Virus record (IMG/VR): IMGVR_UViG_3300023179_009503
Location: 1 to 64,000 of that record
Length of the DNA stretch: 64,000 bases
Origin: a virus
Reading direction: 5' to 3' (one strand)
In this document: piece after piece, positions 23,857-58,866 of the stretch
Layout of the letters: each line of letters opens with the position of its first letter
Numbering within the stretch: position 1 is the stretch's first letter
Notes under the pieces: generated by a model
The model's input: only the letters and a program-made list of their open reading frames with translations
The model's database searches: none
What the model was told of the DNA's origin: nothing
Position numbers and translations under genes: made by a program

Positions 23857-25267
23857 ATAAAAGAATTCTTTTATCCATATGCAGTGAGCTATATTTCAAG
23901 TCATCTGCAATATCGAATATTATAAGCTTATCCTTATCCTTATGCAAGCGAAGGCCTCTACCTATTGATTGTACAATTTTAATTTTAGCTTTGCCGCCGC
24001 ATGCAAAAATAATATAATGAAGGTTTTTAATATTAATACCGGTAGAAAATATTTTAGAAATAGCTACCACTACTACATCATTATACTCTTCCATTAGTCG
24101 TCGTATTTTTTCCCTTTCAGTTACCTCTACTTCACCGCGAATAAAATAACACTGTTTCTCCGGGCAAACAGTTTTTATTGTTTTATATAATGCTTCACCA
24201 TGCTCAATGTAGTCAACGAGAATAAGAGAATTGTTGTTTAATTTACAAGCTACTTTACCGATAACATTATTTCTAAACGTGTTGCGCATTAAAAAGCGCT
24301 GTTCTTCTCTATACAAATTAGAAGAAGATATTACTACATCTTTAAAAGGATCTTCTTTATAAATAATTTTTAAAATTTGTACTAGGACATTGCTAACAAA
24401 ATTTTCTAATCTCAATTCATAGCTATTTTTTTCATAAATGATCGGTCCAATCTTTCCTATAATATTCCATTGATCGAGTAAATTCTCGGGCATAGTGCCA
24501 GTAAACCCAAATCTTACTGGTGTTTTAATTCTTTTAATAATTTTATTAACTTCATTTCCTCTTCTAATTTTATGAACTTCGTCAACAATTAATACATCAA
24601 TATTTTCTAACCATGTCAAATCTGTATTTTTACTCTGAAGTATTCCTAAGTTTGCTATTGTAACATTCTTAATATTTTCATCTAAGGGACAATTACCTGT
24701 CCATTTACCAACGCTAAAAGATACATTGTAGTTTTTAAAATCGCTTGATGTTTGTTCAACAAGCCCTAAATCTGGAACAATATATAAGCATTTAAATTCA
24801 GAGCCGTATAAAAGAAATAACTTTGTAAGTAAAGATGCTGCTGTAAGGGTTTTACCTCCGGCAGTTGCTAGTACTATTGTCCCTCTACCTATAGCTAGAG
24901 CTTTCTTAACAATCTCTTCTTGGTAGTCCCTAAGAGGTAAAGAAAGCGGTACTATATCTGTATTAAATTGTGTATTTGTTTTCCATGATTGAGAAGGGCT
25001 AATGACATTAAAAAGAGATTCGTCTGTATTAACATTACCTACATATTGTTGACTGGTAAGATATTTTCTTATTTCATAATAAAGCCCAGGCTCAAATTTG
25101 CCTGCAGGTGTAATAGCGTAAGTGCGTTGCGGAAGAAATCTGCCATACTTTTTTCTCATAAAAAAAGCGGCCTCGTTTTTTACTGAAAAGTTTTCTCTTA
25201 TGTCTTCAACCATTTCGCCGGTAATGACACCCATTCCCTTTTTAGCATCTAAGGAAAAATTAATCAT
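23807..25267 (-). CDS. uvsW: SF2 DNA helicase
   Basis: LRDYQ; ATAGGKT; DEVH; GFTGT; STGINIKNLH; QSIGRGLR. Confidence 0.93.
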   Translation of the reverse strand: MINFSLDAKKGMGVITGEMVEDIRENFSVKNEAAFFMRKKYGRFLPQRTYAITPAGKFEPGLYYEIRKYLTSQQYVGNVNTDESLFNVISPSQSWKTNTQFNTDIVPLSLPLRDYQEEIVKKALAIGRGTIVLATAGGKTLTAASLLTKLFLLYGSEFKCLYIVPDLGLVEQTSSDFKNYNVSFSVGKWTGNCPLDENIKNVTIANLGILQSKNTDLTWLENIDVLIVDEVHKIRRGNEVNKIIKRIKTPVRFGFTGTMPENLLDQWNIIGKIGPIIYEKNSYELRLENFVSNVLVQILKIIYKEDPFKDVVISSSNLYREEQRFLMRNTFRNNVIGKVACKLNNNSLILVDYIEHGEALYKTIKTVCPEKQCYFIRGEVEVTEREKIRRLMEEYNDVVVVAISKIFSTGINIKNLHYIIFACGGKAKIKIVQSIGRGLRLHKDKDKLIIFDIADDLKYSSLHMDKRILLYEKEQIKHTIKEIQEA

Positions 25268-25656
25268 GTCGTTTCTAGTTTGATAATATCAATTATATTC
25301 TTTAAATCGTAAGATGTAGAGCTTAAGGTCTTTTCTGACTTTTCTAATAATTCTACAACCAACTCTAGTTGTTTAATATTATTATCCATATCAACTAATT
25401 CGCTATGCTTTTCAACTGTACGCTCAGCGACTGGTAAATTAAGTTTTACAGGGCTTTGTTCTTGAAGCTTCTCTACTAAAGTTCTTTTAAGTAAATCACG
25501 CTTTTTACGTAAATCGTTAAGCTCTAACTTGTGACGTATACATCTGCCCGCCCACTTATGCTTTACACCAGGTAATCTAAGTTGATAGTCTTTTAGCTCT
25601 AACTCACTTATTTTTAAGTCGTTTTCTAGCTCTTTTATGTAATCTTCTAGTAGCAT
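25264..25656 (-). CDS. uvsY: Recombination mediator UvsY-like
   Basis: Helical ~130 aa (DLKI...HKW...SYDLKNIID) adjacent to uvsW; start placed at internal ATG 25656. Confidence 0.7.
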   Translation of the reverse strand: MLLEDYIKELENDLKISELELKDYQLRLPGVKHKWAGRCIRHKLELNDLRKKRDLLKRTLVEKLQEQSPVKLNLPVAERTVEKHSELVDMDNNIKQLELVVELLEKSEKTLSSTSYDLKNIIDIIKLETT

Positions 25657-25682
25657 TAACTTAAATAATAGTATATAGTTAT

Positions 25683-25946
25683 ATGAAATCAATAGGTCTA
25701 TTCGAGTCTAGATTTTTAAGCCTTTTAGAACAAAATGTAGCTGGAGGTGGGGGTAGCGTTTTTGGTGTAGGGCCTGGTGGCGCTCCTGGGCAATACGGTA
25801 ATCAATTCCCTTCTCAAAACGATACAGCCTATGCTCCAGGTGATGCTCGTATCCCAAAATTTTTAGGCTCAAAAAAGAAAAGAGGCAAAAAAGGTCCTTT
25901 TATACAGCGTAGGCCGCTTCCTGGATTAGAGCTAAAAAATAATTAA
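25683..25946 (+). CDS. 87-aa late protein containing a copy of the major capsid protein N-arm
   Basis: YGNQFPSQNDTAYAPGDARIPK vs gp23 YGNQFPSQNDNAYAPGDARLPK; upstream TAAATA; basic tail. Confidence 0.85.
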   Translation: MKSIGLFESRFLSLLEQNVAGGGGSVFGVGPGGAPGQYGNQFPSQNDTAYAPGDARIPKFLGSKKKRGKKGPFIQRRPLPGLELKNN

Positions 25947-25954
25947 GTAACTAC

Positions 25955-26380
25955 GTGGAACTAGGACACTGGATTTTAAGTGAAGGAATAACTATAGACG
26001 AAAATACCTTTGGGTTTATATATGAAATAACAAATACGGTTACAAATAAAAAGTATATTGGTAAAAAACAATGTAAATCAAAATTAAAAAGAAAACCATT
26101 AAAGGGTAAAAAAAATAAAAGAATTGAAATAAAAGAATCGGATTGGAGAGAATATACAAGTTCTTCGACAGAGTTAAATGAAGACATTGTTAAGTATGGC
26201 AAATCTAAATTTATTTTTAAAATACTTAAAACTTGCGGATCTAAGTGGGAATTAGCTTATAAAGAAATTTCAGAACAAATATCAAAACAAGTTCTACTTA
26301 GAGATGATTACTATAATGGAATTATAAACGTAAGAATTGGACGTCCTCCAAAAAATTATCTTGAAAAGATTTTAGGTTGA
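25955..26380 (+). CDS. GIY-YIG family nuclease
   Basis: GFIYEITN...KKYIGKK; WREYTSS; YYN. Confidence 0.8.
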   Translation: MELGHWILSEGITIDENTFGFIYEITNTVTNKKYIGKKQCKSKLKRKPLKGKKNKRIEIKESDWREYTSSSTELNEDIVKYGKSKFIFKILKTCGSKWELAYKEISEQISKQVLLRDDYYNGIINVRIGRPPKNYLEKILG

Positions 26381-26971: not shown

Positions 26972-27418
26972 ATGACATTTACTGACAAGCTTAATGCATT
27001 GTTAAATACATTAACAGAAGCGCCTCAACAAGATACAAATACACAGGATGCTGCAGCTCCTGCTCCTGCTGAAGAGCAACCTACTCCTGCTCAGCAGCCC
27101 GAACAAGCAGCTATTCCCCCTGAAGGTTATGTAGATATGGTAAGGATGCTAGCTAAAGCATTAGTAATGAATATTCCTACTGGGACTATTGATTCGTTGT
27201 TCACAACCCCTATAACTAAAGAAAACGCAACTACTGTTAGAGAAGGGCTTCAAAGCGCAATTAGATCTAGTGAAACTTCAGAAGATAATGCAATAAGATT
27301 GGGTAACCCCGCGTTTAAAAAATTCGAACAGTCAATAAATGAAAATAACTTTATGGCAAAGTATAAAGAAATTTTAAATGCTATGAAGAAATTTAGCAAC
27401 GATCCTAAGCTGGGATGA
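26972..27418 (+). CDS. Hypothetical late protein, candidate internal head protein
   Basis: TAAATA-N5-ATG at 26972; MTFTDKLNALLNTLTE-A leader; Pro/Ala/Gln linker. Confidence 0.65.
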   Translation: MTFTDKLNALLNTLTEAPQQDTNTQDAAAPAPAEEQPTPAQQPEQAAIPPEGYVDMVRMLAKALVMNIPTGTIDSLFTTPITKENATTVREGLQSAIRSSETSEDNAIRLGNPAFKKFEQSINENNFMAKYKEILNAMKKFSNDPKLG

Positions 27419-29006: not shown

Positions 29007-30214
29007 TATCTTTTAAGCAATTTGTTCTTGAAGGAGGTGCAGCTGGTCATATGGCTCATCCGTTTGATTTGCCTAATGTAAATTCTGGCAAAGATCTTAT
29101 TAATTTTTTTAATAAAGCTATTACCAGCTTAACAAAAAAGCCTGCTTCTGTAAAAATTGACGGTGTAAACACTTCTATTAAGCTAATTACGAATAGTGAG
29201 GGTAAAAAAGAGTTTGCTATGGATAGAGGCTCAAATAAACCTGAAGATATAGAAGGTGTTACAATAGCAAGATTAAGTCAAAGATTTCCTGAAGGGCATG
29301 GTATGTTAGAAACCGGTAAAACTGTTTTATCTATCTTCAATTCAGCTCTACCAAATATAGAGAAAGATTTAAAGAAATTAAAAATGTGGGATAATCCAAA
29401 TATTCTTTTTAATATGGAATTTGTTAAAGGCTCTACTAATGTTATAGGCTATGCAACTAACTTTGTAGCAATTCATGGGTTAAACGAAATTATTAAAGTC
29501 AAAAGTCCTGTTAGAGGCAGTGTGAGTAGAGCTTCAAGAGAAATAACTTATGATAAAAAAGCATTGCAGAGTTTAATAGAAAAAGTTAATCCTATTGCTA
29601 GAAAGCAAGGTTTTGATGTGGAGCATGAATTTACTATAAACTTAAAAGAAAAAGTCAATTTTAATAATGCGCTTGATTCCGATTTTACAGTAAATTACGA
29701 TTCAAAAAACGCGATTAAACAGCCCTTAAAAAATTGGCTTGCAAAAGCAAAGAACCCTAGAGCAGAAAAAATAAAATTAACTTCCGGAAAAACTATAAGC
29801 GCTATGAGCTTAGAAAACTTTAAAAATATATCTAGCGGTGTTCCTATGGATCATTATATCGGTAATAACAAAAAAGATATTGAAAAGGCTGTAAACGGTG
29901 CAGTATTTTATCAAGCAACAATTTTACTTGGTGATGCAGTAAAAAATGCTGCATCTTCTGCTTTAGGTTCTTTATCAGCACAAGAAGGTATAGTAATAAG
30001 AGATCCTTCAATTTCTAGCGCACCGGTTAAAATTACTGGAAGTTTTATAACGGGTAAAGAAGCTAGCAAATTCAGAAAGCAAGAAAATGAAGAGGGTATA
30101 AAAGGTGTTATATCTAATACCAATACTGTTTTAAACAAAACTAATTATCAAACTAACCCACCTTTTGGTAAGGAAGGTGCTAGATTAGTACAAACACCTG
30201 GAGTACAACTATGA
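29003..30214 (+). CDS. Ligase-like nucleotidyltransferase (DUF6267-like) with capsid-targeting leader
   Basis: MISFKQFVLE-GGAAGHMAHP; KIDG (motif I); EGIVIR (motif IV); VKITGSF (motif V). Confidence 0.65.
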   Translation: MISFKQFVLEGGAAGHMAHPFDLPNVNSGKDLINFFNKAITSLTKKPASVKIDGVNTSIKLITNSEGKKEFAMDRGSNKPEDIEGVTIARLSQRFPEGHGMLETGKTVLSIFNSALPNIEKDLKKLKMWDNPNILFNMEFVKGSTNVIGYATNFVAIHGLNEIIKVKSPVRGSVSRASREITYDKKALQSLIEKVNPIARKQGFDVEHEFTINLKEKVNFNNALDSDFTVNYDSKNAIKQPLKNWLAKAKNPRAEKIKLTSGKTISAMSLENFKNISSGVPMDHYIGNNKKDIEKAVNGAVFYQATILLGDAVKNAASSALGSLSAQEGIVIRDPSISSAPVKITGSFITGKEASKFRKQENEEGIKGVISNTNTVLNKTNYQTNPPFGKEGARLVQTPGVQL

Positions 30215-30867
30215 AATTTGACCAATTAGTAAATGAAATATTAATGCCTCAAAAGAATAATCTTATTGTTATTTTTCCAGGTAGGTTTCAGCCTTTTCAT
30301 TTGGGGCATAAACGCTTTTATGATTTAGCAAAAAAGAAATTTCCGGGTGCTGATTTTTACATAGCTAGCTCTGATATACCGGAAAAAGCTGCAACTAAAG
30401 AGCCTGGTCGCTATCCTTTTAATTTTGCAGAAAAAAAAGCTATTATGATAGCTGCAGGCATACCTGAAAAAGAAATTGTTCAGGTCAAACAACCTTACAA
30501 ACCTATAGAAATTTTAAAAGACTATGATCAAAATTTTGCAAAAGTAATTTATATAGTTGGTGAAAAAGATATGAAAAAGGACCCTAGATTTGCATTTGGC
30601 ATGACTAAAAAAGGAACCCCTACTTATTTTCAGCCTTTTAAAAGCTTAAACGAGTTACAGCCTTTTAAAGAAGACGGTGGCCATGGTTATATATACTCTC
30701 CTGGAACTATAGAATTTAATGTTAACGGAAAAAATATTACTAGTGCATCTGAATTAAGAGAGCTATATAAAAATTCTAACGAGCAAAGTAAAAAAGAAAT
30801 TATTACACAAATTCTAGGTAAATTCGATACAAAGATTTATAATCTATTTAACGCAAAAATTATTTAA
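30211..30867 (+). CDS. HxGH cytidylyltransferase-like nucleotidyltransferase
   Basis: PGRFQPFHLGH; PFNFAEKK; SASELR. Confidence 0.85.
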   Translation: MKFDQLVNEILMPQKNNLIVIFPGRFQPFHLGHKRFYDLAKKKFPGADFYIASSDIPEKAATKEPGRYPFNFAEKKAIMIAAGIPEKEIVQVKQPYKPIEILKDYDQNFAKVIYIVGEKDMKKDPRFAFGMTKKGTPTYFQPFKSLNELQPFKEDGGHGYIYSPGTIEFNVNGKNITSASELRELYKNSNEQSKKEIITQILGKFDTKIYNLFNAKII

Positions 30868-31502
30868 TTTTTCTTCTTATTTTCAAGAAGTATTATAGTC
30901 TCAAGTAAAACTTTCTCTAAATTTTCAACGCTTTCTCTTTTTAGTACTTTGCTTATCTGACTTAAAAGGGCATCGCCACCTTTAGATATAGCAGAAAATA
31001 GTTCTTCTTCATTATTTTCTTCTAAATTACCGCATGCACCGTGCATAGGGTTTTTAGCAGCTTCATAATCTTCATAACCGAAAACTGATTCAAGTTGATC
31101 ATGTGCATTAGTTATCTTGCTTAGTACCCAAGCTTCAACATTATCTTTCCCATTAAGAATATCGTGTAGCATTGCGGATAACTTAAAAATTCTAAACAAA
31201 AGTTGTCGCGACATTTGTCCATTACTATCATAAGTCGAAGGATCATACCCTTCACAATCCTCGCTTTTACTTTGATTACCTTTACATTCTGGGCAATTAT
31301 TGCAAGTACAGCCTTGAGCTGCAGCATGGCAATGCTCTTCTTCTTCGCAGCCACATTCTCTTTTTACAGGAAAATTTACCTTAGTAATTTTTGATGGTGA
31401 AGGTGTTACAGACTGATCACCTAAAGGACCAAGCCCAACGCTTTCAGTAACTATCTTTTTTACATAAAGATCGTTTAAAGCATCAAAGTCGCGTGCAAAC
31501 AT
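30864..31502 (-). CDS. Hypothetical late protein with a Cys-rich segment
   Basis: TAAATA-N5-ATG; CGC...CH...CTCNNCPEC; EAWVLSKIT helical domain. Confidence 0.65.
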   Translation of the reverse strand: MFARDFDALNDLYVKKIVTESVGLGPLGDQSVTPSPSKITKVNFPVKRECGCEEEEHCHAAAQGCTCNNCPECKGNQSKSEDCEGYDPSTYDSNGQMSRQLLFRIFKLSAMLHDILNGKDNVEAWVLSKITNAHDQLESVFGYEDYEAAKNPMHGACGNLEENNEEELFSAISKGGDALLSQISKVLKRESVENLEKVLLETIILLENKKKN

Positions 31503-31534: not shown

Positions 31535-31822
31535 ATGTTATTCGAAAAAGCTTTTCTACATGCTCTTGAACAAGATATAATTGAAGAAAAAAAAGGTGCC
31601 AGGTGTACTAAAGTTACAGGTCAGCAATCTTCTACTAGATCTGATAAAAAATATATGCGCTGTACACGTGTAGATGGTAAGTTGAAAAGAATACATTATG
31701 GCGATCCAAATTTACGTATAAAAAAATCTAACCCCAAGAAACGTAAATCATTTAGAGCGCGTCATAAATGCTCGTCCGCAAAACCAGGTACTGCAAAATA
31801 TTATAGTTGTAAGAACTGGTAA
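31535..31822 (+). CDS. Small basic late protein
   Basis: TATAAATA-N5-ATG at 31535; HYGDPNLRIKKSNPKKRKSFRARHKC...YYSCKNW. Confidence 0.7.
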   Translation: MLFEKAFLHALEQDIIEEKKGARCTKVTGQQSSTRSDKKYMRCTRVDGKLKRIHYGDPNLRIKKSNPKKRKSFRARHKCSSAKPGTAKYYSCKNW

Positions 31823-34418: not shown

Positions 34419-34853
34419 ATGAAGTATAATGACATAATTCTTGAAAGCTTAAAGAAAACAGCTTTAAAGCGTATTAGGATTAAGGTTGATCCTGCGTGTG
34501 TCAGTGCTGAAGCAGATTTTTCTAATATTGATGGTTATGAGGGGTATGTTTTAGAAGAAGGAAAAAGCCATTTAAAGATTTTAGTAATTACTCCTGAGCT
34601 TGGAATACAAGATGTACCTATTGAATTTATTGAGGCTATAGCAGATGATGCAGACTATGATTCTTTTTGTAGCTTAAAAGAATATATTGTTAAAACACTC
34701 TTTAAGGATGGTGTAGTAGAAAACGATCCTATTATAATTCAAATATCTAACAGCAATTGTTTAAACGATATTGAAAGAATAATTAATCAAAAAGGATATA
34801 CAGGAGATAAACTAGCAGATCTGTATAAAAACTTTATCACCAATGATGAATAA
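34419..34853 (+). CDS. Hypothetical late protein
   Basis: MKYNDIILE-S leader; upstream TAAATA. Confidence 0.6.
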   Translation: MKYNDIILESLKKTALKRIRIKVDPACVSAEADFSNIDGYEGYVLEEGKSHLKILVITPELGIQDVPIEFIEAIADDADYDSFCSLKEYIVKTLFKDGVVENDPIIIQISNSNCLNDIERIINQKGYTGDKLADLYKNFITNDE

Positions 34854-36036
34854 TTTTGATAATTTAGCCAACCTTGCTTTGAACGAAAAACTATTTTCTG
34901 ATTACATGAAAGATGCTATGAAAATAGCACAAACAGCTAAACAAAAAGCGGGTAAGCCTTTAAAAAGAGCTGTGCAAAAAACGAGAATTGGGGCCCGGAA
35001 GCTTGGAAGAGATATTATTGATGATCCTGAAAAAGTTGCTAAAGCTGCAGTTACTGGGGCAGCAAAAGGTGTAGCAAAGGGTGCAGATGTACTGGGAGGT
35101 GCTGCTTTAGGAGCTGCAGGAGCTGCAGCTAGAGGCATAGGTAAAGCAGTTACAAAAGTACCGGGAGCCCTTGCGGCAGCTCCTGGAGCAATACGCGGTG
35201 TAACAGATTTCTTTACCGGTAACAGACCGAGCCAGCAAATTGCTGGTGCATTGGGTAAGCTACAAGCAGGTATTGATAAAAAAATGCAAGATAGAACAGC
35301 TAAGTCTTTAGGATTAAGAACAGAAAATCCAAAGTCTGGTGATAATCTTTCTATTGAAATAGGTCGCAATCCTACTGCAGGGGTAGGTATAAAAATACCT
35401 GTTTCAGGTAATGTGGGGACTAAATTTGGTAAAACATCTAAATTCCAGAACATGACAATATATGATGTACCAATTAATAATAATAAAAATATAGCTTTAA
35501 TAAAAGTAGGTGTCGGCGATCCTAAAGATTCAAATGTACAGCTTTATTATTTTGATCAAAATAATCAAAAAGTAGATGGTAGAGGGTTAGGTCTACCTGC
35601 TGCTGCGATTTTAAATTACAGTAATAAAGTAAATGGATGGAAAATAACCGATAAAGAACCGCCCGGTATTGAAGAGTTTAGTCTTGTTAAGGTTAAGCAA
35701 GCTATGCAAAAAATGGCAGCACAGCAACAGCAAGCACAACAAACCACAGTTACACCTACAGCACCTCCTGCTCCGGGTACCCCGGTCTCGGGCACGGTTT
35801 CAGCACCGGGAGCTGTTACCGGCGGTACTGCAACCCCGGCTAGTGCTGCAGGTACAGCATCAGCTGCGACAACTGCTCCTACAACAGCAGGTACACCTGA
35901 ACCTACTAAACCTTCTTCTGCTAATGTTATACCTAAAGTAAATGATGTATTTAATATTGAAGATAGGTATGGTAAATTAAAGAAATATAAGATATCTGCT
36001 GTAGATAATGATACAGTTTACGCGTTTCAGGTTTAA
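34843..36036 (+). CDS. Ala/Gly/Lys-rich candidate internal (ejected) protein
   Basis: MMNNFDNLANLALNE-K leader; long Ala/Gly helices; Thr/Pro/Ala linker. Confidence 0.65.
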   Translation: MMNNFDNLANLALNEKLFSDYMKDAMKIAQTAKQKAGKPLKRAVQKTRIGARKLGRDIIDDPEKVAKAAVTGAAKGVAKGADVLGGAALGAAGAAARGIGKAVTKVPGALAAAPGAIRGVTDFFTGNRPSQQIAGALGKLQAGIDKKMQDRTAKSLGLRTENPKSGDNLSIEIGRNPTAGVGIKIPVSGNVGTKFGKTSKFQNMTIYDVPINNNKNIALIKVGVGDPKDSNVQLYYFDQNNQKVDGRGLGLPAAAILNYSNKVNGWKITDKEPPGIEEFSLVKVKQAMQKMAAQQQQAQQTTVTPTAPPAPGTPVSGTVSAPGAVTGGTATPASAAGTASAATTAPTTAGTPEPTKPSSANVIPKVNDVFNIEDRYGKLKKYKISAVDNDTVYAFQV

Positions 36037-36483: not shown

Positions 36484-37158
36484 ATGATATACGAGAGTAC
36501 AAAGATTATTGAGTTAGGTTCTTGCGCATTTAGACAATGGAAAGCTAATCATAGCCATTGCAAGTTTATTCATGGTTATAGATTACAAGCTAAATTTTGG
36601 TTTGGATGTACAAATTTAGATGATAAAAATTGGGTAGTCGATTTCGGTGGTTTAGATGATTTAAAAAAAATACTACAAAAACAATTTGATCATACATTAT
36701 GTGTAGCTGCAGATGATCCTTTACTAGAAGGATTTAAAACTTTACATACTGCAGGTGGCTGTGATTTGAGAATAATGGAAGGCGGTGTTGGTATAGAAAA
36801 GACCGCTGAATGGTGTTTTAACACAGCTAATGCTTATTGTCAAACCATAACAAGTGGAAGATGTTGGGTTAATAAAGTAGAAGTTTGGGAACATGAAAAA
36901 AACTCTGCAATTGTTTCTTTTCAAAACTCACAAAACTCTGAATTACCTCCTCCTGTACACGCAGCTTTTCAACGCCCGGTAAATCCAATTCGAGAAACTA
37001 TTAATGAAATAGAAAAAGAAACAGGCGTACCTATTTCGAACGTTTTAAAACAGATTCCTGTAAGCAATACTCAAGCTGGTACAAGACCTGCGCCATTAAA
37101 GAACCCTAAATCCGAAGGATATTCGAATTTATTCGGCGGTACAAGCTGGGGTTCATGA
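36484..37158 (+). CDS. queD: 6-carboxytetrahydropterin synthase with C-terminal extension
   Basis: HCKFIHGY; WVVDFG; FDH; VEVWEHEKNSA. Confidence 0.92.
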   Translation: MIYESTKIIELGSCAFRQWKANHSHCKFIHGYRLQAKFWFGCTNLDDKNWVVDFGGLDDLKKILQKQFDHTLCVAADDPLLEGFKTLHTAGGCDLRIMEGGVGIEKTAEWCFNTANAYCQTITSGRCWVNKVEVWEHEKNSAIVSFQNSQNSELPPPVHAAFQRPVNPIRETINEIEKETGVPISNVLKQIPVSNTQAGTRPAPLKNPKSEGYSNLFGGTSWGS

Positions 37159-38073: not shown

Positions 38074-38817
38074 ATGAGTGATAAAACTATTTTTCTAAGT
38101 GACGATAAGATATTTTATACAATTGAGGGGGAAGGGGAGTATGTAGGTAAACCATCTGTTTTTATGAGACTTTCAATGTGTAATTTAACATGTAAGGGGT
38201 TTGCTTCAGCAGATTCGCCTAACGGTTGTGATAGTTTTATTAGCTGGTCTGTAAAAAATAAACTTTCATTTGATGAAGTTTTTGAATTTATGGCGCAACA
38301 TAGCTATAACTGCCATCTTAAAGACGGAGCTATATGGAAAATAACTGGTGGTGAACCTCTTATACAGCAAAAAAATCTTCTTGACTTAGTTGATCAATTT
38401 ATTTTTAGATTTAATTTTCTTCCTAAGATTGACTTTGAAACAAACGCAACAATTTTACCAGATCAACAATGGGTTGATTGGAAAGCTACATTCACTACAT
38501 CACCAAAACTTAGCAATAACGGTGACCCTGAAGAAAAGAGGTACAAGCCGGCAGTTTTAAAATGGCATGTTGATCATGGTTCAAGTTTTAAATTTGTTAT
38601 AAATGAAGAAAAAGATCTTGACGAAGTATATGAAAAGTATATTTGTCATAATAATATCTTAGTACCAAAAGATAGAGTATGGTTAATGCCGTGTTGCGGA
38701 AGTCGCTCCGAACATGTTGAAAAAGCAGCTATGGTTGCAGAGCTCTGTAAAAAACATCACTTTAATTTTAGTCCACGCTTACAGCTTGTTATTTGGGATA
38801 AAGCACTTAAAGTATAA
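38074..38817 (+). CDS. queE: 7-carboxy-7-deazaguanine synthase (radical SAM)
   Basis: FYTIEGEG; CNLTC...CDS; TGGEP; ETN; SPK; SPRLQ. Confidence 0.93.
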   Translation: MSDKTIFLSDDKIFYTIEGEGEYVGKPSVFMRLSMCNLTCKGFASADSPNGCDSFISWSVKNKLSFDEVFEFMAQHSYNCHLKDGAIWKITGGEPLIQQKNLLDLVDQFIFRFNFLPKIDFETNATILPDQQWVDWKATFTTSPKLSNNGDPEEKRYKPAVLKWHVDHGSSFKFVINEEKDLDEVYEKYICHNNILVPKDRVWLMPCCGSRSEHVEKAAMVAELCKKHHFNFSPRLQLVIWDKALKV

Positions 38818-51597: not shown

Positions 51598-52269
51598 ATG
51601 GCGCTTCGTCTACTAGTCGAAACACCTGCTTCTGAAGAGCAGTTTGAATATATTTTAGAGGAAAAAAACCCTAAAGAGCCCGCAAAACTCTATATTCAAG
51701 GTCCTTACATGGTTTGTAATGAAGTAAATAAGAACCAGCGTATTTACGAGCGTGATGATATGCGTCGTGAAGTTGAACGCTATATAAAAGAAATGGTTTC
51801 AACAAACAGAGCGATGGGCGAGCTTAATCATCCCACATCCGCAGAAGTTAATCTAGAGAGAGCCTGCCATCTTGTTACAAATTTAAAATTTGAAGGAAAC
51901 CAGGTAGTAGGAAGATCACAAGTACTTTCAACACCGATGGGTCAGATTGTACGTAATCTTATCAATGATGGTGTAAAGGTAGGAATGTCTAGCCGCGCAC
52001 TTGGAAAATTAAATGAAGAAACAAATGGTATTAATCGTGTAACAGATATGAGATTAATTGCTGTTGATTGTGTAGCTGATCCGTCATGCCCTAAAGCATT
52101 TGTAAATGGAATATTAGAAAGCAAGCAATTTATTTTAAATACTAAAGGTGAACTAGAAGAAGTTTATGATGCTTTCGAAAAATCTATTAATAATTTACCT
52201 CGAAAAGACGTACAAGCTTATTTAAAAGAGCAAATTTTGACGTTTTTTAAATTTTTAAGAACTACTTAA
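51598..52269 (+). CDS. gp21: Prohead protease
   Basis: NKNQRIY; GELNHP; TPMG; GMSSRALG; DCVADPS. Confidence 0.95.
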   Translation: MALRLLVETPASEEQFEYILEEKNPKEPAKLYIQGPYMVCNEVNKNQRIYERDDMRREVERYIKEMVSTNRAMGELNHPTSAEVNLERACHLVTNLKFEGNQVVGRSQVLSTPMGQIVRNLINDGVKVGMSSRALGKLNEETNGINRVTDMRLIAVDCVADPSCPKAFVNGILESKQFILNTKGELEEVYDAFEKSINNLPRKDVQAYLKEQILTFFKFLRTT

Positions 52270-52491: not shown

Positions 52492-53376
52492 ATGGAAACA
52501 AACATTAGCAAAACTCTAAAAGAAGCGACTAAAGATATTCTCACAGAGGATGTTCTTAAGGAAATCGAAACTGCATTTGAAACATCAGTTAATGAAAAAG
52601 TTCAAATTCATGTTGAGAAAGCTCTCGCTGAACAAGATGCTGATTATTCCAAAAAATTAGAGACTTTAGTAGAAGCAATAGATACAGATCATACCAACAA
52701 GCTTAAGAAGGTTGTTGAAGCAATTGATGCTGATCGTGCTGCTAAGCTAAAGACGGTAGTAGAAAAATATGAAGCAGCATTGAATAAAGAAGCTTCTGAG
52801 TTCAAGAATAGCATTGTTGATGAAATAAGCAAATATCTTGATCTCTATATTGATGAAAAACTACCCTCAGCTTCAATTACTGAAGCTGTAAAGAATAAAA
52901 AGGCTATTTCTCTTTTAGAGAATTTACGCCAGGTTCTTGCTGTTGATATGGCACTCGCTAAGGATAATATCCGCGATGCTGTAGTTGATGGGAAGAATAA
53001 AATAGATGAAGCTGCTAGCCAGCTTGAAGCCGCTACAAAAGAAGTAGCTAGATTGTCAGAAGAGAATAAGAAGCTCTCCGCTAAAGTAATGCTTGAGGAA
53101 AGAGTTTCTAAGCTCGAAGAAGACAAAAAGACTTACATGAAGAAAATGCTTAATGGTAAGTCTGCAGAGTTTATTAAAGAGAACTTTGACTACACTTTGA
53201 AGCTGTTTGAAAAGACAGAAGAAGAGCGGCTGAAAGCATTAAAAACGGAAGCGGTTTCTGAAACTGTATCTGCACAAGTTGATAGACCAGTAATTGAAGA
53301 AGCTGTACAGCCCCAGGAAGTAAATGAAGCAGATCCAATGTTTAATACTTACATGGGCGAGCTTTCGAAGTATTAA
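52492..53376 (+). CDS. gp22: Prohead core scaffold protein
   Basis: Acidic coiled coil; KYLDLY; C-terminal MFNTY; directly upstream of gp23. Confidence 0.85.
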   Translation: METNISKTLKEATKDILTEDVLKEIETAFETSVNEKVQIHVEKALAEQDADYSKKLETLVEAIDTDHTNKLKKVVEAIDADRAAKLKTVVEKYEAALNKEASEFKNSIVDEISKYLDLYIDEKLPSASITEAVKNKKAISLLENLRQVLAVDMALAKDNIRDAVVDGKNKIDEAASQLEAATKEVARLSEENKKLSAKVMLEERVSKLEEDKKTYMKKMLNGKSAEFIKENFDYTLKLFEKTEEERLKALKTEAVSETVSAQVDRPVIEEAVQPQEVNEADPMFNTYMGELSKY

Positions 53377-53453: not shown

Positions 53454-54977
53454 ATGGCTAAACAAATTCGTCCTACACAGGCTTACATTGATGAGTCACG
53501 CGCTAAGGTACTTCTCGAGAAGTGGGGTCCAGTTCTGGATTACTCTTCCGATAACGTCCGCGCTATCGAAGACGATCACACACGCTTAAACACCGCTATC
53601 CTTTTGGAAAACCAAGAGAAGTGGTGCTTTGAGGCTAGCAACACAGTCGGTGGAAACACTGGCGTATTCGGCGGCGCTATTAATAATGGCGCTTACGGTA
53701 ACCAGTTCCCTTCACAGAATGATAATGCTTACGCCCCAGGCGATGCGCGTCTACCGAAGATCCTCATCCCGATGATTCGCCGTACGTTCCCTGAGTTGAT
53801 CACTAACGAAATCGTTGGTGTTCAGCCCATGAGCGGTCCAGTAGGTCTTGCTTTTGCCCTCCGTTATAAGTACGAACCCACCAGCTTAGGTTACAATCCC
53901 GATGGCAAGATCGACGCAAGCAACTCTACAACAAAGTATGCTAGCTCGTTCTTACAGTCATTGTCGACAAACCCTGAGCTAGGGTATCAGTTCCTCGCTT
54001 CCGGCTTTACCGGAACGCAGCAGCCACAATTGTCGGGTAATTCCGACTTCACAATGCTAACACAAGATCAGGGTGTTGCTCAGCTACTCGGCCAGTTCGA
54101 GTTGAATGCAAACATTCCTCAGGTCGTTGTAAGCTTTGAGAAGACAGCAGTCGAGGCCGGCACACGCCGTCTCGCCGCTCGCTGGTCAGTTGAGCTCGAG
54201 CAGGATCTTAAGAACATGAACGGTATCGATATCGATACTGAGCTCACAAACGCTATGTCGTATGAGCTACAGGCCGAAATCGACCGTGAAATGATCATTC
54301 GCATGATCCAGACAGCACTCAATGCTGGCTACGGCACAGGTTATTCAATCTGGTCGCCCGTATCAGCAGACGGTCGCTGGCTCGTTGAACGTAATCGTGA
54401 CTTCTATCAGAGACTAATCGTCGAAGCTAATCGTATTGCAGTACGTAATCGCCGTGGTTCTGCCAACTTCGTTGTTGCAACACCTCGCGTTTGCGCTATC
54501 CTAGAAATGCTCCCTGAATTCCAGTGGGTACCAGTACAGGGTAATGTTAATACACAGCCCGTCGGTGTTGCAAAAGTAGGTTCGCTGGGTGGCAGGTTCA
54601 ACGTTTACCGTGATACTCGTACAGAAGCTCAGGCTGAAGCTTATAATACTGGTGGCATCCCTCCTGGTAATTTCCAGGGTCAGGGCTGGCCAACAGCTTA
54701 TGGCACCCAGAACTTCTCGCGTCAAGTACGCCTCGAGTATGCACTCCTTGGTTACAAGGGCCCGGAATTCTACGACACTGGTATCATCTATTGTCCGTAC
54801 ATCCCGGTAATGGTTCAGAGAACGATTGGTCCTAATGATTTTGCTCCTCGCGTTGGCTTACTAACACGTTATGGTGTAGTAGACAACATCTTTGGTGCTA
54901 ATCTTTACTACCACGTCATTATTCTCAAGAACCTCGGTACTCCGTTTGTTCCTGGAACACAGTCGGTCTACTTCTAA
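53454..54977 (+). CDS. gp23: Major capsid protein
   Basis: LLEKW.PVL; LLENQ; VGVQPMSGP; ELEQDLK; EIDRE; YCPYIP; TRYG. Confidence 0.97.
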   Translation: MAKQIRPTQAYIDESRAKVLLEKWGPVLDYSSDNVRAIEDDHTRLNTAILLENQEKWCFEASNTVGGNTGVFGGAINNGAYGNQFPSQNDNAYAPGDARLPKILIPMIRRTFPELITNEIVGVQPMSGPVGLAFALRYKYEPTSLGYNPDGKIDASNSTTKYASSFLQSLSTNPELGYQFLASGFTGTQQPQLSGNSDFTMLTQDQGVAQLLGQFELNANIPQVVVSFEKTAVEAGTRRLAARWSVELEQDLKNMNGIDIDTELTNAMSYELQAEIDREMIIRMIQTALNAGYGTGYSIWSPVSADGRWLVERNRDFYQRLIVEANRIAVRNRRGSANFVVATPRVCAILEMLPEFQWVPVQGNVNTQPVGVAKVGSLGGRFNVYRDTRTEAQAEAYNTGGIPPGNFQGQGWPTAYGTQNFSRQVRLEYALLGYKGPEFYDTGIIYCPYIPVMVQRTIGPNDFAPRVGLLTRYGVVDNIFGANLYYHVIILKNLGTPFVPGTQSVYF

Positions 54978-55479: not shown

Positions 55480-56394
55480 TTACTGCCTTACAGTCTTAGT
55501 AAAATACTTATATTCGTCTATTAGCGCTTTATCTAGAAGACTATAGTTACTAGCTCTTGTAGGGTTAATATCAATACCACCGCGCCTTACGTATAGACAG
55601 CTCACAACAAGCTCTTCAGGTTTAAACAGTCTAAATAAACGCATATAAATTGTTTCACAAATCTCCTCATGAAAATGACATTCATCTCTAAAAGAAACAA
55701 TATATTGTAAAAGAGATGTTTGATTAATCTCATACTTGCCTTTATAGTGAATATAAACATCGCCCCAATCAGGTTGAGAAGTAACTCTACAATTACTCTT
55801 TAATAAAGCAGAATGAAATCTTTGTACTTTAGCTTCAGGGATCTCTATTGCAGATAAAATAGAAGGATCCTCTACATATGATCTAGATTGTATCATAGTA
55901 ACATCAATATTATTTTCAAGTGTAGGATAATCTTTATTGCTAAATACCGGTGGATAATACAAATCGTCTGACACCGCAGCCGTAGATCTTACATATACTT
56001 TGACATCCGTCTCAAGTAAACTGGACAAATCCTTTGCAATAGTACTCTGTAATTCGTTTAATACTTGAATCATGTTACCTTTAAATACTTGCATATTAAA
56101 AGAATTCATGTATAGCTTAATAGACTTTGATTCTACAATATACTTGTTCTTAGCAGGATAAACTATTTTAGCAATTGCTGCAATAGGCATACCTTCCTGT
56201 GTTAAGCAAGAAACTTCATATGCATTCCAAATATCAAAACCACCGAAAGGTGCGTTTTCGTCTGTGATATCTAAATGCTTACGATTGTTGATTCTTGGCT
56301 CACGTACTAAAAGTGAAGGATCATAAGTCGACTTATACCCTGTTACTTTACCTAAATGCTTCGAAATGTTGCTATTGTCTAATACCTTGTTCAT
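55480..56394 (-). CDS. queF: NADPH-dependent preQ0 reductase (two-domain type)
   Basis: DIWNAYEVS; VESKSIKLY; LKSNCRVTSQPDWG; FHEEICE; YVRRGGIDINP. Confidence 0.95.
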   Translation of the reverse strand: MNKVLDNSNISKHLGKVTGYKSTYDPSLLVREPRINNRKHLDITDENAPFGGFDIWNAYEVSCLTQEGMPIAAIAKIVYPAKNKYIVESKSIKLYMNSFNMQVFKGNMIQVLNELQSTIAKDLSSLLETDVKVYVRSTAAVSDDLYYPPVFSNKDYPTLENNIDVTMIQSRSYVEDPSILSAIEIPEAKVQRFHSALLKSNCRVTSQPDWGDVYIHYKGKYEINQTSLLQYIVSFRDECHFHEEICETIYMRLFRLFKPEELVVSCLYVRRGGIDINPTRASNYSLLDKALIDEYKYFTKTVRQ

Positions 56395-56981: not shown

Positions 56982-57329
56982 TTACTTACACCACTTTTTT
57001 CTTTTAACTATTTCTGCAATAATACAATAAACAGAAGTATCACTAAAAGCATCAAATATAGGCTCATTAGCTGACTCAAATGTCTTTTTACGTAGAACTA
57101 AATTAATTAGACGTTGTATTTTATCATTTAATCTTACCACTATAGCGGATATTGATGCAACAATATCTTCTTTTTTATGAAGATCTGAACCAAGACTTAT
57201 ATTATGCGGGCCGTAGTCAAATTGCTTTTTGCAAAATGTTTCATATTGCTCGCGTTGAATTTTTTTAAATTCTTCACAAGTCTCAGGATACGTGGCTTCA
57301 ACGCTCTTAATATAGTCTTCCGGATTCAC
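56982..57329 (-). CDS. Nucleotide-modification-associated domain 1 (Nmad1/DUF1599; all-alpha)
   Basis: KKQFDYG; RLNDKIQRL; E...DAFSD..VY. Confidence 0.75.
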   Translation of the reverse strand: MNPEDYIKSVEATYPETCEEFKKIQREQYETFCKKQFDYGPHNISLGSDLHKKEDIVASISAIVVRLNDKIQRLINLVLRKKTFESANEPIFDAFSDTSVYCIIAEIVKRKKWCK

Positions 57330-58297
57330 AATCTTACCCCGTAACCAACTTTACTTAAACTAAGAGTATTTAAATTGCAACCCCCCGCATAACTAATAGC
57401 GCTTTGCAAGTCCTGTGTAATTTCTAAAAGCTTTTCTTCGTAAGTAAAAGAATCGGTTTCCATAAGCTTCATTGTACCTTCAATGTTCTTTTTATCCATC
57501 TTATTGTGTATGCTAGCAGATCCGTAGTACTGTTTATATCGTCGTCCAGAAGCGTCTTTTACTACCGGTGCGGGGCTATCTGAACATGCAGCAAATATTG
57601 ACCCACACATAACTATCTTAGCTCCTGCAACTAAAGCTTTCGCTATATCACCATTACAGCGAACACCTCCATCCGCAATAATAGGTATATCAAAATTTGT
57701 TGCATCATTATTAGCACACTCCATAACACAACTAAACATTGGATAAGTAAATCCTGTTTTATCTTTTGTAGTACAAGCATAGCCGCCTCCTATACCAACC
57801 TTAACTGCATCAGCACCCGCCATAGCTAAATATTCTACCCCATTACGTGTTGCAACATTACCTGCAATTACTTTTGTGTTAGGCAAATTATCCTTAATTA
57901 TTTTAATTTGATCAGCGACTTTAGAGTGATGTCCGTGTGCGACATCTATAGTAATAAAATCCACTCTAAGCTTATGGTTACCTAAATTATTAATTAAAGC
58001 TTTATCTTTAAATTGTATTCCCACGCTAATTGAAACATTATTAAAACACGCCTCGTTTGCATCTCTGACAAATGCAAAAATATCATGATCAAACCTATGC
58101 ATAATGTAAAAATAATGCTTTGAATCTAACATTTGACAAGTATCAAAATCAACACAGCATTTCATATTCGCCGGTACCACTGGTAAGCGAAAGGTTTTAT
58201 CTAAAAAATTTACCTCCGTACTAATGTCTGCTCTTGTTCGAACAGAATTAAAGTTTGGCTTTAAAAAAACGTTTTCGTAATGTAAGGATATGTCCAT
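57326..58297 (-). CDS. guaC: GMP reductase
   Basis: VVPANM; YFYIMHRF; IDVAHGH; AGNV; KVGIGGGYACTT; IIADGG; YYGSAS; KKNIEG; no CBS domains. Confidence 0.85.
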   Translation of the reverse strand: MDISLHYENVFLKPNFNSVRTRADISTEVNFLDKTFRLPVVPANMKCCVDFDTCQMLDSKHYFYIMHRFDHDIFAFVRDANEACFNNVSISVGIQFKDKALINNLGNHKLRVDFITIDVAHGHHSKVADQIKIIKDNLPNTKVIAGNVATRNGVEYLAMAGADAVKVGIGGGYACTTKDKTGFTYPMFSCVMECANNDATNFDIPIIADGGVRCNGDIAKALVAGAKIVMCGSIFAACSDSPAPVVKDASGRRYKQYYGSASIHNKMDKKNIEGTMKLMETDSFTYEEKLLEITQDLQSAISYAGGCNLNTLSLSKVGYGVRL

Positions 58298-58866
58298 TAT
58301 TTTTCTAAGATTTTATAACCGGTAAATAAGCTTTTCCACAAATCAAATGCAACTTCATGTAACTTACTGTATACGTCTGGGAGTGTAAGATTTTCTATAC
58401 CTATACCCTGACTTAACAGAATTTCACCTGCATCTACCTCGGGTACTACTCTATGTATAACGCAACCTGCATGCTTATACCCTTCTAGGAACGCTCTCTC
58501 TTGCGGATTAAACCCTTTAAGAGAAGGGTACTTATCAATAAGACCGGGGTGTAGATTATAAATTTCGTATTTATTACAGATATCTTTAGGTATAATTCTC
58601 AGATAGCCGTGCAGAGTTATAACTGGATTACTAAATTGACTTAAAATATGCTCATAGCTTTCTACAGACGGTTTAGATTGCAACATATACCATATAGTCC
58701 TATTAAGTTTATGCTCCCTAAACGTGGTTGTAGTCAGCAAATCTTTATTAACACCATCTGTGGTCAAGCGGTTTGTAACAATTGCATCAGGGTAAATGCT
58801 AAGAGCATTACAAAGATTATTAATCTCTGTACCTGTTTGTGAAAAAAAAGCTATCCAAGGTCTCAT
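58297..58866 (-). CDS. PurN-like formyltransferase (candidate DpdN, preQ1 formyltransferase)
   Basis: FSQTGT; LHGYLRI; YNLHPG; GCVIHRV..EVDAGEI; adjacent to the DpdA-like gene. Confidence 0.8.
   Translation of the reverse strand: MRPWIAFFSQTGTEINNLCNALSIYPDAIVTNRLTTDGVNKDLLTTTTFREHKLNRTIWYMLQSKPSVESYEHILSQFSNPVITLHGYLRIIPKDICNKYEIYNLHPGLIDKYPSLKGFNPQERAFLEGYKHAGCVIHRVVPEVDAGEILLSQGIGIENLTLPDVYSKLHEVAFDLWKSLFTGYKILEK

Follow-up and report, generated by a model that had tools for sequence, protein, structure and literature searches.

A partial copy of the major capsid protein's N-terminal arm in a small gene of an uncultured T4-like phage, with equivalents in T4 and a cyanophage

The stretch of DNA analysed here (64,000 nucleotides, hereafter the window) derives from a 74.6-kb IMG/VR record (IMGVR_UViG_3300023179_009503; ~35% complete) of an uncultured T4-like phage, whose own major capsid protein, gp23, is only ~32% identical to the gp23 of any cultured phage. 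The window encodes a portal in addition to a gp21-type protease and a gp22-like scaffold, and the genes and features that concern us are the following:

25264..25692, minus strand: uvsY (Pfam UvsY), the divergent neighbour of the small gene and a conserved synteny marker
25683..25946, plus strand: the small gene (87 amino acids, ATG start, pI 10.4), a partial copy of gp23 residues ~59-115
25955..26380, plus strand: SegE-like GIY-YIG gene (Pfam PF19835, E 5e-29), immediately downstream and syntenic in relatives too
51598..52269, plus strand: gp21-type prohead maturation protease (phrog_207, E 1.5e-57), the presumed processing enzyme
52492..53376, plus strand: gp22-like scaffolding core protein (phrog_237, E 5e-4; position between gp21 and gp23), a candidate common partner
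53454..54977, plus strand: gp23, major capsid protein, 507 amino acids (Pfam Gp23, E 3e-88)
53628..53798, plus strand: gp23 residues 59-115, comprising C-F-E60, presumed to be the cut site, and the N-terminal arm, source of the copy

The small gene is surrounded by recombination and nucleotide-modification (7-deazaguanine-pathway) genes and not by a head operon. In the region 25656-25692 (minus strand), the TTG given as the start of uvsY (25692) overlaps the start codon of the small gene, and an ATG 12 codons further in, giving a protein that begins M-L-L-E-D-Y, is the likelier start; the spacer between the two divergent genes is then only ~26 bases, so that their promoters must sit within the neighbouring coding regions. 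The word TTAAATAAT, which lies upstream of the small gene, is common to gp20 and had been considered as a late promoter, was not enriched in the window (9 found versus 7.2 expected), and a scan for sigma-70 promoters and terminators was uninformative. The 7-deazaguanine (preQ) pathway of the phage includes a QueD-like protein (PTPS), QueF (both domains, E 4e-34 and 2e-22), a possible QueE-like protein whose radical-SAM-type match is weak and falls below the Pfam cut-off (Fer4_12, E 5.5e-4) and a cytidylyltransferase-like protein (ORFs of this set at 36484-37158, 38074-38817, 55480-56394 on the minus strand, and 30211-30867), with GMP-reductase/IMPDH-like and formyltransferase genes close by (57326-58866), and probably serves DNA or tRNA modification.

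Residues 38-59 of the small protein (25794-25859) are identical to residues 81-102 of gp23 (53694-53759) at 20 of 22 positions, a match that the first-pass annotation had reported and that realignment confirmed, and its count of different codons at 12 of the 20 identical residues holds as well (the other 8 codons are the same, and nucleotide identity is 50/66). BLASTP of the small protein against the gp23 of the window returned 29/50 identities (E 1e-14 to 1e-15), and comparison of the two families by hhalign aligned small-protein residues 15-82 to gp23 residues 59-115 (probability 99.7%, E 1e-25); by these scores the match lies far beyond chance and is longer than first noted. With both MAFFT and hhalign the similarity is no island of 22 residues: it is colinear, interrupted only by a Lys-rich insertion of ~10 residues, and runs from the Glu of L-L-E16, aligned with that of gp23 C-F-E60, through a Gly-rich stretch, the motif and P-K-x-L to the insertion and then to an end block in which I-Q-R-R-P-L-P-G-L is aligned with gp23 M-I-R-R-T-F-P-E-L. 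The small protein is made up of four parts, all on the plus strand:

25683..25730, plus strand: leader, residues 1-16, a predicted helix with L-F-E (6-8) and L-L-E (14-16)
25731..25859, plus strand: arm copy, residues 17-59, a Gly-rich stretch and a conserved motif of 21 residues
25860..25898, plus strand: Lys/Arg-rich insertion, residues 60-72, missing in gp23
25899..25931, plus strand: C-terminal block, residues 73-83 (x-I-Q-R-R-P-L-P-G-L-E), corresponding to gp23 106-115

The extent of the copy therefore differs from that of the first-pass annotation, which recognized the 22-residue match but overlooked the leader at the N-terminus, the gp23-like block at the C-terminus and the existence of lineages with a decayed motif (G014 and G015, below); what it took for a basic tail is the Lys-rich insertion (60-72), which lies inside the longer copy and is followed by the gp23-like block (73-82). 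Its upstream alignment of L-L-E with C-F-E was correct, in that the Glu of a hydrophobic-x-Glu site, aligned between the two proteins, is where the similarity begins, and a protease cut there would release an arm with an end like that of gp23*. Between the leader itself (residues 1-16) and the end of the gp23 propeptide the alignment is of low confidence. In the AF2 model of the small protein (mean pLDDT 62), residues 6-18 form a helix and the remainder is coil predicted with low confidence, and the predicted product of a cut at Glu16 is a 71-residue peptide with a pI of 10.5.

Of the 39 full-length family members, 36 when scored by script and 37 when scored by eye have a hydrophobic-x-Glu triplet just ahead of the N-V-A-G-G block, and the C-terminal block is nearly invariant across the family. 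The leader, the E-x-N-V-A-G-G junction, the Lys-rich insert and the Q-R-R-P-L-P-G-L end are found in the family and in no gp23. The copied residues 59-115 of gp23 lie upstream of the capsid fold, and Pfam detected no HK97-like capsid fold (PF07068) in the small protein, to which Pfam, PHROGs (E 0.01) and the protein atlas assign no family; cultured-phage DNA and tblastn searches with the window small protein returned no match.

The small gene is real and under selection. Its metagenome relatives fall into at least 39 clusters (90% identity) of 78-88 amino acids that are 53-91% identical to the small protein, and IMG/VR holds 287 relatives. In relatives the gene is invariably flanked by uvsW-uvsY, on one strand, and by the SegE-like GIY-YIG gene together with a gene for a ~190-residue protein, on the other; the placement beside uvsY is kept down to 52-58% UvsY identity, and the same synteny is present in a complete genome (184.5 kb, terminal repeats included). 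The motif has the lowest pN of all segments (0.167; pN/pS 0.24, with pS saturated at ~0.67). The neighbouring SegE-like GIY-YIG gene encodes 141 amino acids with the nuclease domain only (in relatives, L121 2216-2647 and L107 654-1064, minus strand), and because its position is kept at ~52% UvsY identity it looks fixed, perhaps domesticated, rather than like a mobile homing endonuclease. Hitch-hiking of the small gene with a homing endonuclease was considered and ruled out by the synteny, the GIY-YIG gene being itself fixed in place.

The first-pass annotation had also proposed that co-variation of the small gene with the gp23 of its own genome be examined. When the small gene was paired with the gp23 of the same record in 14 phages, the outcome was positive: own gp23 was the best of the 14 matches for five small proteins (G003, G006, G009, G012 and G027), and the summed own-pair score was 1708 as against 1468 +/- 60 in 20,000 permutations (p ~1e-4). 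Where the gp23 motif deviates from the consensus the small protein deviates likewise, both proteins of a phage having S-P-P ... S-x-D in G012, F/V-P-G-x-P-N-D in G009 and G027, A-P-N-D-T-R in G006 and G027, and A-P-N-D in G003, and a tree of the gp23 body distributes these cases of parallel change over three or more separate lineages. Of the 382 aligned residues that are identical, 132 have the same codon in both genes, compared to 169 expected from codon usage, and this figure, the codon comparison within the motif and the low pN of the motif bear out the first-pass view that the peptide rather than the DNA is conserved. Close to the parallel changes, at a distance of one to three codons, is an Arg codon for which the small gene has AGA/AGG and gp23 has CGT, a contrast seen in all five phages (G003, G006, G009, G012 and G027). 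Gene conversion was rejected as the source of the similarity, given that there is no excess codon sharing and that the Arg codons are gene-specific in five lineages. The simplest reading of the co-variation would be parallel selection, with both segments fitting one co-evolving partner. The correspondence is not universal: in G014 and G015 the motif has decayed while own gp23 stays canonical, although the small proteins retain the leader, the junction, the Lys-rich part and a Q/A-R-R end, and in G028 and G030 own gp23 is the poorest match. In these four phages the copy has drifted from its own gp23, so exact mimicry is not always needed.

The first-pass annotation knew of no described equivalent, but T4 gene 61.1 (phrog_1823/2086) and PHM2_171 of the Prochlorococcus phage P-HM2 (phrog_4187) match the design; T4 gp61.1, its long forms in other phages and PHM2_171 are annotated only as hypothetical proteins. 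T4 gp61.1 (54 amino acids; phrog_1823, E 3e-33) matches T4 gp23 residues 57-93 at 17 of 37 positions (E 6e-9 to 1e-8). In T4 gp23 the cleavage site is L-T-E65 and residues 66-91 form the N-fist (PMC7136217), and the copy in gp61.1 spans both. The first 10 residues of gp61.1 are identical at seven positions to the capsid targeting sequence (CTS) of IPII/IPIII, and its first seven residues are those of IPI; residues 4, 7, 8 and 10 of the T4 targeting sequence matter for targeting and processing (PMC9026906), and at these positions gp61.1 either retains the residue or carries the substitution present in IPI. The gp61.1 versions of 44RR, RB43 and Ac42 carry the same gp23 copy, and in the long forms of RB43 and Ac42 (phrog_2086) an N-terminal domain of ~110 residues replaces the short leader. 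The T4 gp61.1 leader also aligns with T4 gp23 residues 57-65 (F-x-x-F-L-x-E; T4 loci in this comparison: L158 3967-4131, minus strand; L159 946-2511, plus strand; L167 3417-4416, minus strand), and its likeness both to this segment and to the IPII/IPIII targeting sequence raises the prospect that the T4 targeting sequence may copy the end of the propeptide.

The window family and the gp61.1 proteins of T4, 44RR, RB43 and Ac42 have the same order of parts (a hydrophobic-x-Glu site, a copy of own gp23 and a Lys-rich stretch), and the two families share a junction, E-(D/E)-(M/N)-V-A-G, that is missing from gp23. Each small protein matches only the gp23 of its own clade (window small protein versus T4 gp23, E 0.5; T4 gp61.1 versus window gp23, E 0.16). 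Alignment of the window family with the gp61.1 family by hhalign gave a probability of 78% (E 1.7e-5), the 17 aligned columns comprising the end of the leader and the E-x-V-A-G junction; the phrog_1823 and phrog_2086 models do not recognize the window family, with phrog_1823 touched by only 2 of 40 window-family members, at E 0.23. The T4 copy ends at gp23 residue 93 with a mixed-charge tail, whereas the window protein runs on into the block corresponding to M-I-R-R and is strongly basic, and the gp61.1 gene lies beside primase gene 61 in T4 and 44RR, whereas the window gene lies between uvsY and the GIY-YIG gene. Judged from sequence comparison, the window family appears to be a distant counterpart, or at least an architectural equivalent, of T4 gp61.1, and common descent of the two is plausible.

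PHM2_171 of P-HM2 (234 amino acids; T4-like gene cluster 538, phrog_4187) copies P-HM2 gp23 residues 55-97 at its N-terminus (25/43 identities, E 2e-11), continues with an Arg/Lys-rich stretch and is encoded four genes from the primase gene. It differs from the other forms in having no leader, the copy beginning at about residue 8, in a C-terminal extension of ~190 residues and in belonging to a different PHROG family. A search of phage Melnitz for a second copy of its own gp23 N-terminus found none. By tblastn, 1389 phage records have a match to gp61.1; in three of the 40 listed among these the matched feature is annotated as major capsid protein, and such labels (in, for example, Acinetobacter phage Minot, Klebsiella phage Miro and Cronobacter phage SemperBestia) are probably the product of automatic annotation catching the same similarity. 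A literature search found no role for T4 gene 61.1, which is named only in passing, and no discussion of the resemblance of its family to gp23.

Small proteins with a removable leader are familiar from the T4 head, in which the leader of the internal proteins loads them into the prohead core and is removed by gp21, whose recognition pattern is a hydrophobic-x-Glu triplet (PMC9026906). IPI, IPII, IPIII and Alt are of this kind, small and basic proteins with an N-terminal leader of 10-19 residues ending in L/I-x-E (PMC9026906). The window protein begins with a leader (MKS...) that is predicted to be helical and has two hydrophobic-x-Glu sites; features that may be compared with a CTS, the targeting rules being those known for T4 only, are F7, F11, L-F-E at 6-8 and L-L-E at 14-16, and the gp21-type protease expected alongside CTS-bearing head proteins is encoded in the window (phrog_207, ORF 51598-52269). 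The T4 internal proteins differ in carrying no copy of the capsid arm, and the window leader is longer than the T4 CTS and only loosely similar to it. Two further small core components of T4 that are cut by gp21, gp67 and gp68, are implicated in head-size control (PMC9026906); their genes lie in the head gene cluster, unlike the window small gene, and a role of this type is of the kind that a competitor for capsid-core contacts could have. In the T4 prohead, gp23 up to about residue 105 is disordered, lies inside and probably touches the scaffolding core, and the head-length mutations A66D, A94V and G97S map within this segment (PMC9546572); upon expansion the segment goes outside and forms the arm and the N-fist, contacting four subunits (PMC9546572, PMC9958956).

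A protein that combines a targeting-type leader, a cut site and a gp23 segment is most simply explained as a passenger of the prohead core. The reading that we favour, and that we consider just short of probable, is that the small protein is loaded into the prohead, trimmed by gp21 and has a partner in common with the capsid arm. The gene would produce a small precursor whose four parts stand in gp23 order (a helical leader ending at L-L-E16, the arm copy, the Lys-rich insertion and the gp23-like block), and the precursor would co-assemble inside the prohead, using those contacts by which the N-terminal region of gp23, itself internal at this stage, is held; the likeliest partner would be the gp22 scaffolding core. 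As copy and original would have to fit the same partner, they would change in step. Cleavage by gp21 after Glu16 would then yield a 71-residue basic, disordered peptide with a new N-terminus like that of mature gp23, and the freed peptide could, as the T4 internal proteins do, stay with the DNA, or else modulate head size and the contacts between capsid and core.

In support of prohead loading we count the selection on the gene, its colinear homology to gp23 59-115, the aligned hydrophobic-x-E site, the encoded gp21-type protease, the co-variation (not explained by gene conversion), the gp23 copy and CTS-like leader of T4 gp61.1, the restriction of each match to own-clade gp23, the predicted helix, the internal position of the gp23 segment in T4 proheads, and the early class of T4 61.1 mRNA, to which ipII and ipIII also belong. 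Against it we count that the presumed gp23 site is here C-x-E and not L/I-x-E, that the P-HM2 form is leaderless and the RB43 and Ac42 forms have a domain of ~110 residues in place of the leader, that the window leader is only a loose match and some copies have decayed, that the gene lies outside the head operon, that the link to gp61.1 spans 17 columns and is missed by PHROG models, and that gp61.1 went undetected in a T4 proteome time course (PMC9697503), in which a 54-residue protein is easily missed, and is absent from a published inventory of T4 core proteins. Prediction of a complex between the small protein and gp22 (alignments A3 and A2) scored 0.00 and carries no weight either way. 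On balance, the family fits best among the leader-bearing internal head proteins, with the capsid-arm copy as its distinctive part.

Fusions and further leaders occur in the window and its relatives. In G012 (L107 1057-1725, minus strand; 222 amino acids) the gene continues beyond the arm copy into a C-terminal domain with a faint likeness to the ParB/Srx-like part of SbnI (E 0.056), and in L035 (4010-4606, plus strand; 198 amino acids) the arm copy is fused to a repeat that is also present in the preceding ORF; the C-terminal or N-terminal extensions of the L035, P-HM2 and RB43 proteins matched no Pfam family. The fusions in G012 and L035 suggest that the leader-plus-arm module is able to carry cargo. 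Leaders similar to that of the small protein are also seen on window ORFs 26972-27418, 31535-31822 and 34843-36036 (plus strand) and 30864-31502 (minus strand), as well as at L035 5660-6052 and 6052-6246, and one ORF of 95 amino acids begins almost like the small protein. A pattern consisting of M, F near position 3-6, a hydrophobic run and hydrophobic-x-Glu at ~12-20 fits 4 of 84 N-termini in the window, compared to a background of 1.5% (P 0.035), a weak enrichment. To judge by their N-termini, these ORFs could be further head passengers trimmed by the protease.

An alternative that we regard as unlikely is that the cleaved peptide acts as an arm in trans, docking on gp23 where the arm and N-fist normally sit, and perhaps filling empty sites by the portal or the vertices or serving as cement, with the Lys-rich part towards the DNA. 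An arm acting in trans was the idea of the first-pass annotation, whose particular suggestions (occupation of vacant sites by the portal, a tether for DNA, a decoy for Lit or CapRel) gained no support. The copied segment corresponds to the T4 N-fist and arm, which bind four neighbouring subunits (PMC9958956), the T4 N-fists that face the portal are disordered (PMC7136217), and a docking site on gp23 would explain the co-variation as well as a scaffold partner does. The T4 N-fist ends up outside the shell, however, whereas the design of leader plus cut site points inward, and the close match has been lost in several lineages. In two T4 head cryo-EM papers covered by a text search, neither 'extra density' nor 'unassigned' was used of the outer surface, which is weak evidence against such docking, and the sole extra density mentioned in them is helical and lies under gp24.

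The small protein might instead work outside the head, as a soluble competitor or decoy that vies with nascent gp23 for a factor reading the cut-site and arm segment; candidates for this factor are the protease prior to assembly, a protein that assists folding or assembly, and a host defence that senses capsid protein, so that the small protein would alter timing or blunt the sensor. An early time of expression would suit such a role, and 61.1 mRNA is of the early class in T4, along with those of ipII and ipIII (PMC9697503 Table S2). In T4, P-HM2 and the window the genes lie among those for replication and recombination, and the P-HM2 form has no leader. The last block of the window protein would overlap the start of the region corresponding to the T4 Gol peptide, which we take to be gp23 residues 93-122. 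The T4 copy, however, ends at gp23 residue 93, where Gol begins, and so cannot mimic Gol; the T4 leader, near-identical to a proven capsid targeting sequence, is hard to square with a purely cytoplasmic protein; and no defence-related signal was found in this analysis. We consider a decoy improbable.

It is scarcely credible, finally, that the gene is a functionless remnant of gp23, perhaps that of another phage, brought in by the GIY-YIG endonuclease or kept by gene conversion: the SegE-like gene does start 8 bases downstream, and a diverged donor gp23 could in principle yield synonymous differences with conserved residues, but the locus is the same down to 52% uvsY identity, the complete 184.5-kb genome included, the family has parts found in no gp23, the motif has the fewest amino-acid changes, there is no surplus of common codons, the two genes use different Arg codons and the GIY-YIG gene is fixed in synteny.

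Prohead loading followed by trimming remains the reading that we prefer for the window protein, and T4 head assembly, a model system for sixty years in which gene 61.1 has gone unstudied, is where it bears most directly. If the design is functional, the small protein would be an extra component of prohead assembly or of the protein complement that is delivered along with the DNA, which would account for a copy that keeps pace with the capsid arm of each phage. A broader and more doubtful proposition is that T4-like phages ranging from T4 through cyanophages to the uncultured clade have a free copy of the cut site and arm, dedicated and co-evolving, that acts in trans in head morphogenesis, competing or substituting at a scaffold or shell site and thereby setting head size, expansion timing or stability; in that event it would be an unrecognized component of a much-studied virus assembly pathway. 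Should the T4 targeting sequence copy the end of the capsid propeptide, this would provide a loading mechanism for T4-type heads, of relevance to T4 protein delivery. The likeness to T4 gene 61.1 makes the role of the small protein open to standard T4 genetics.
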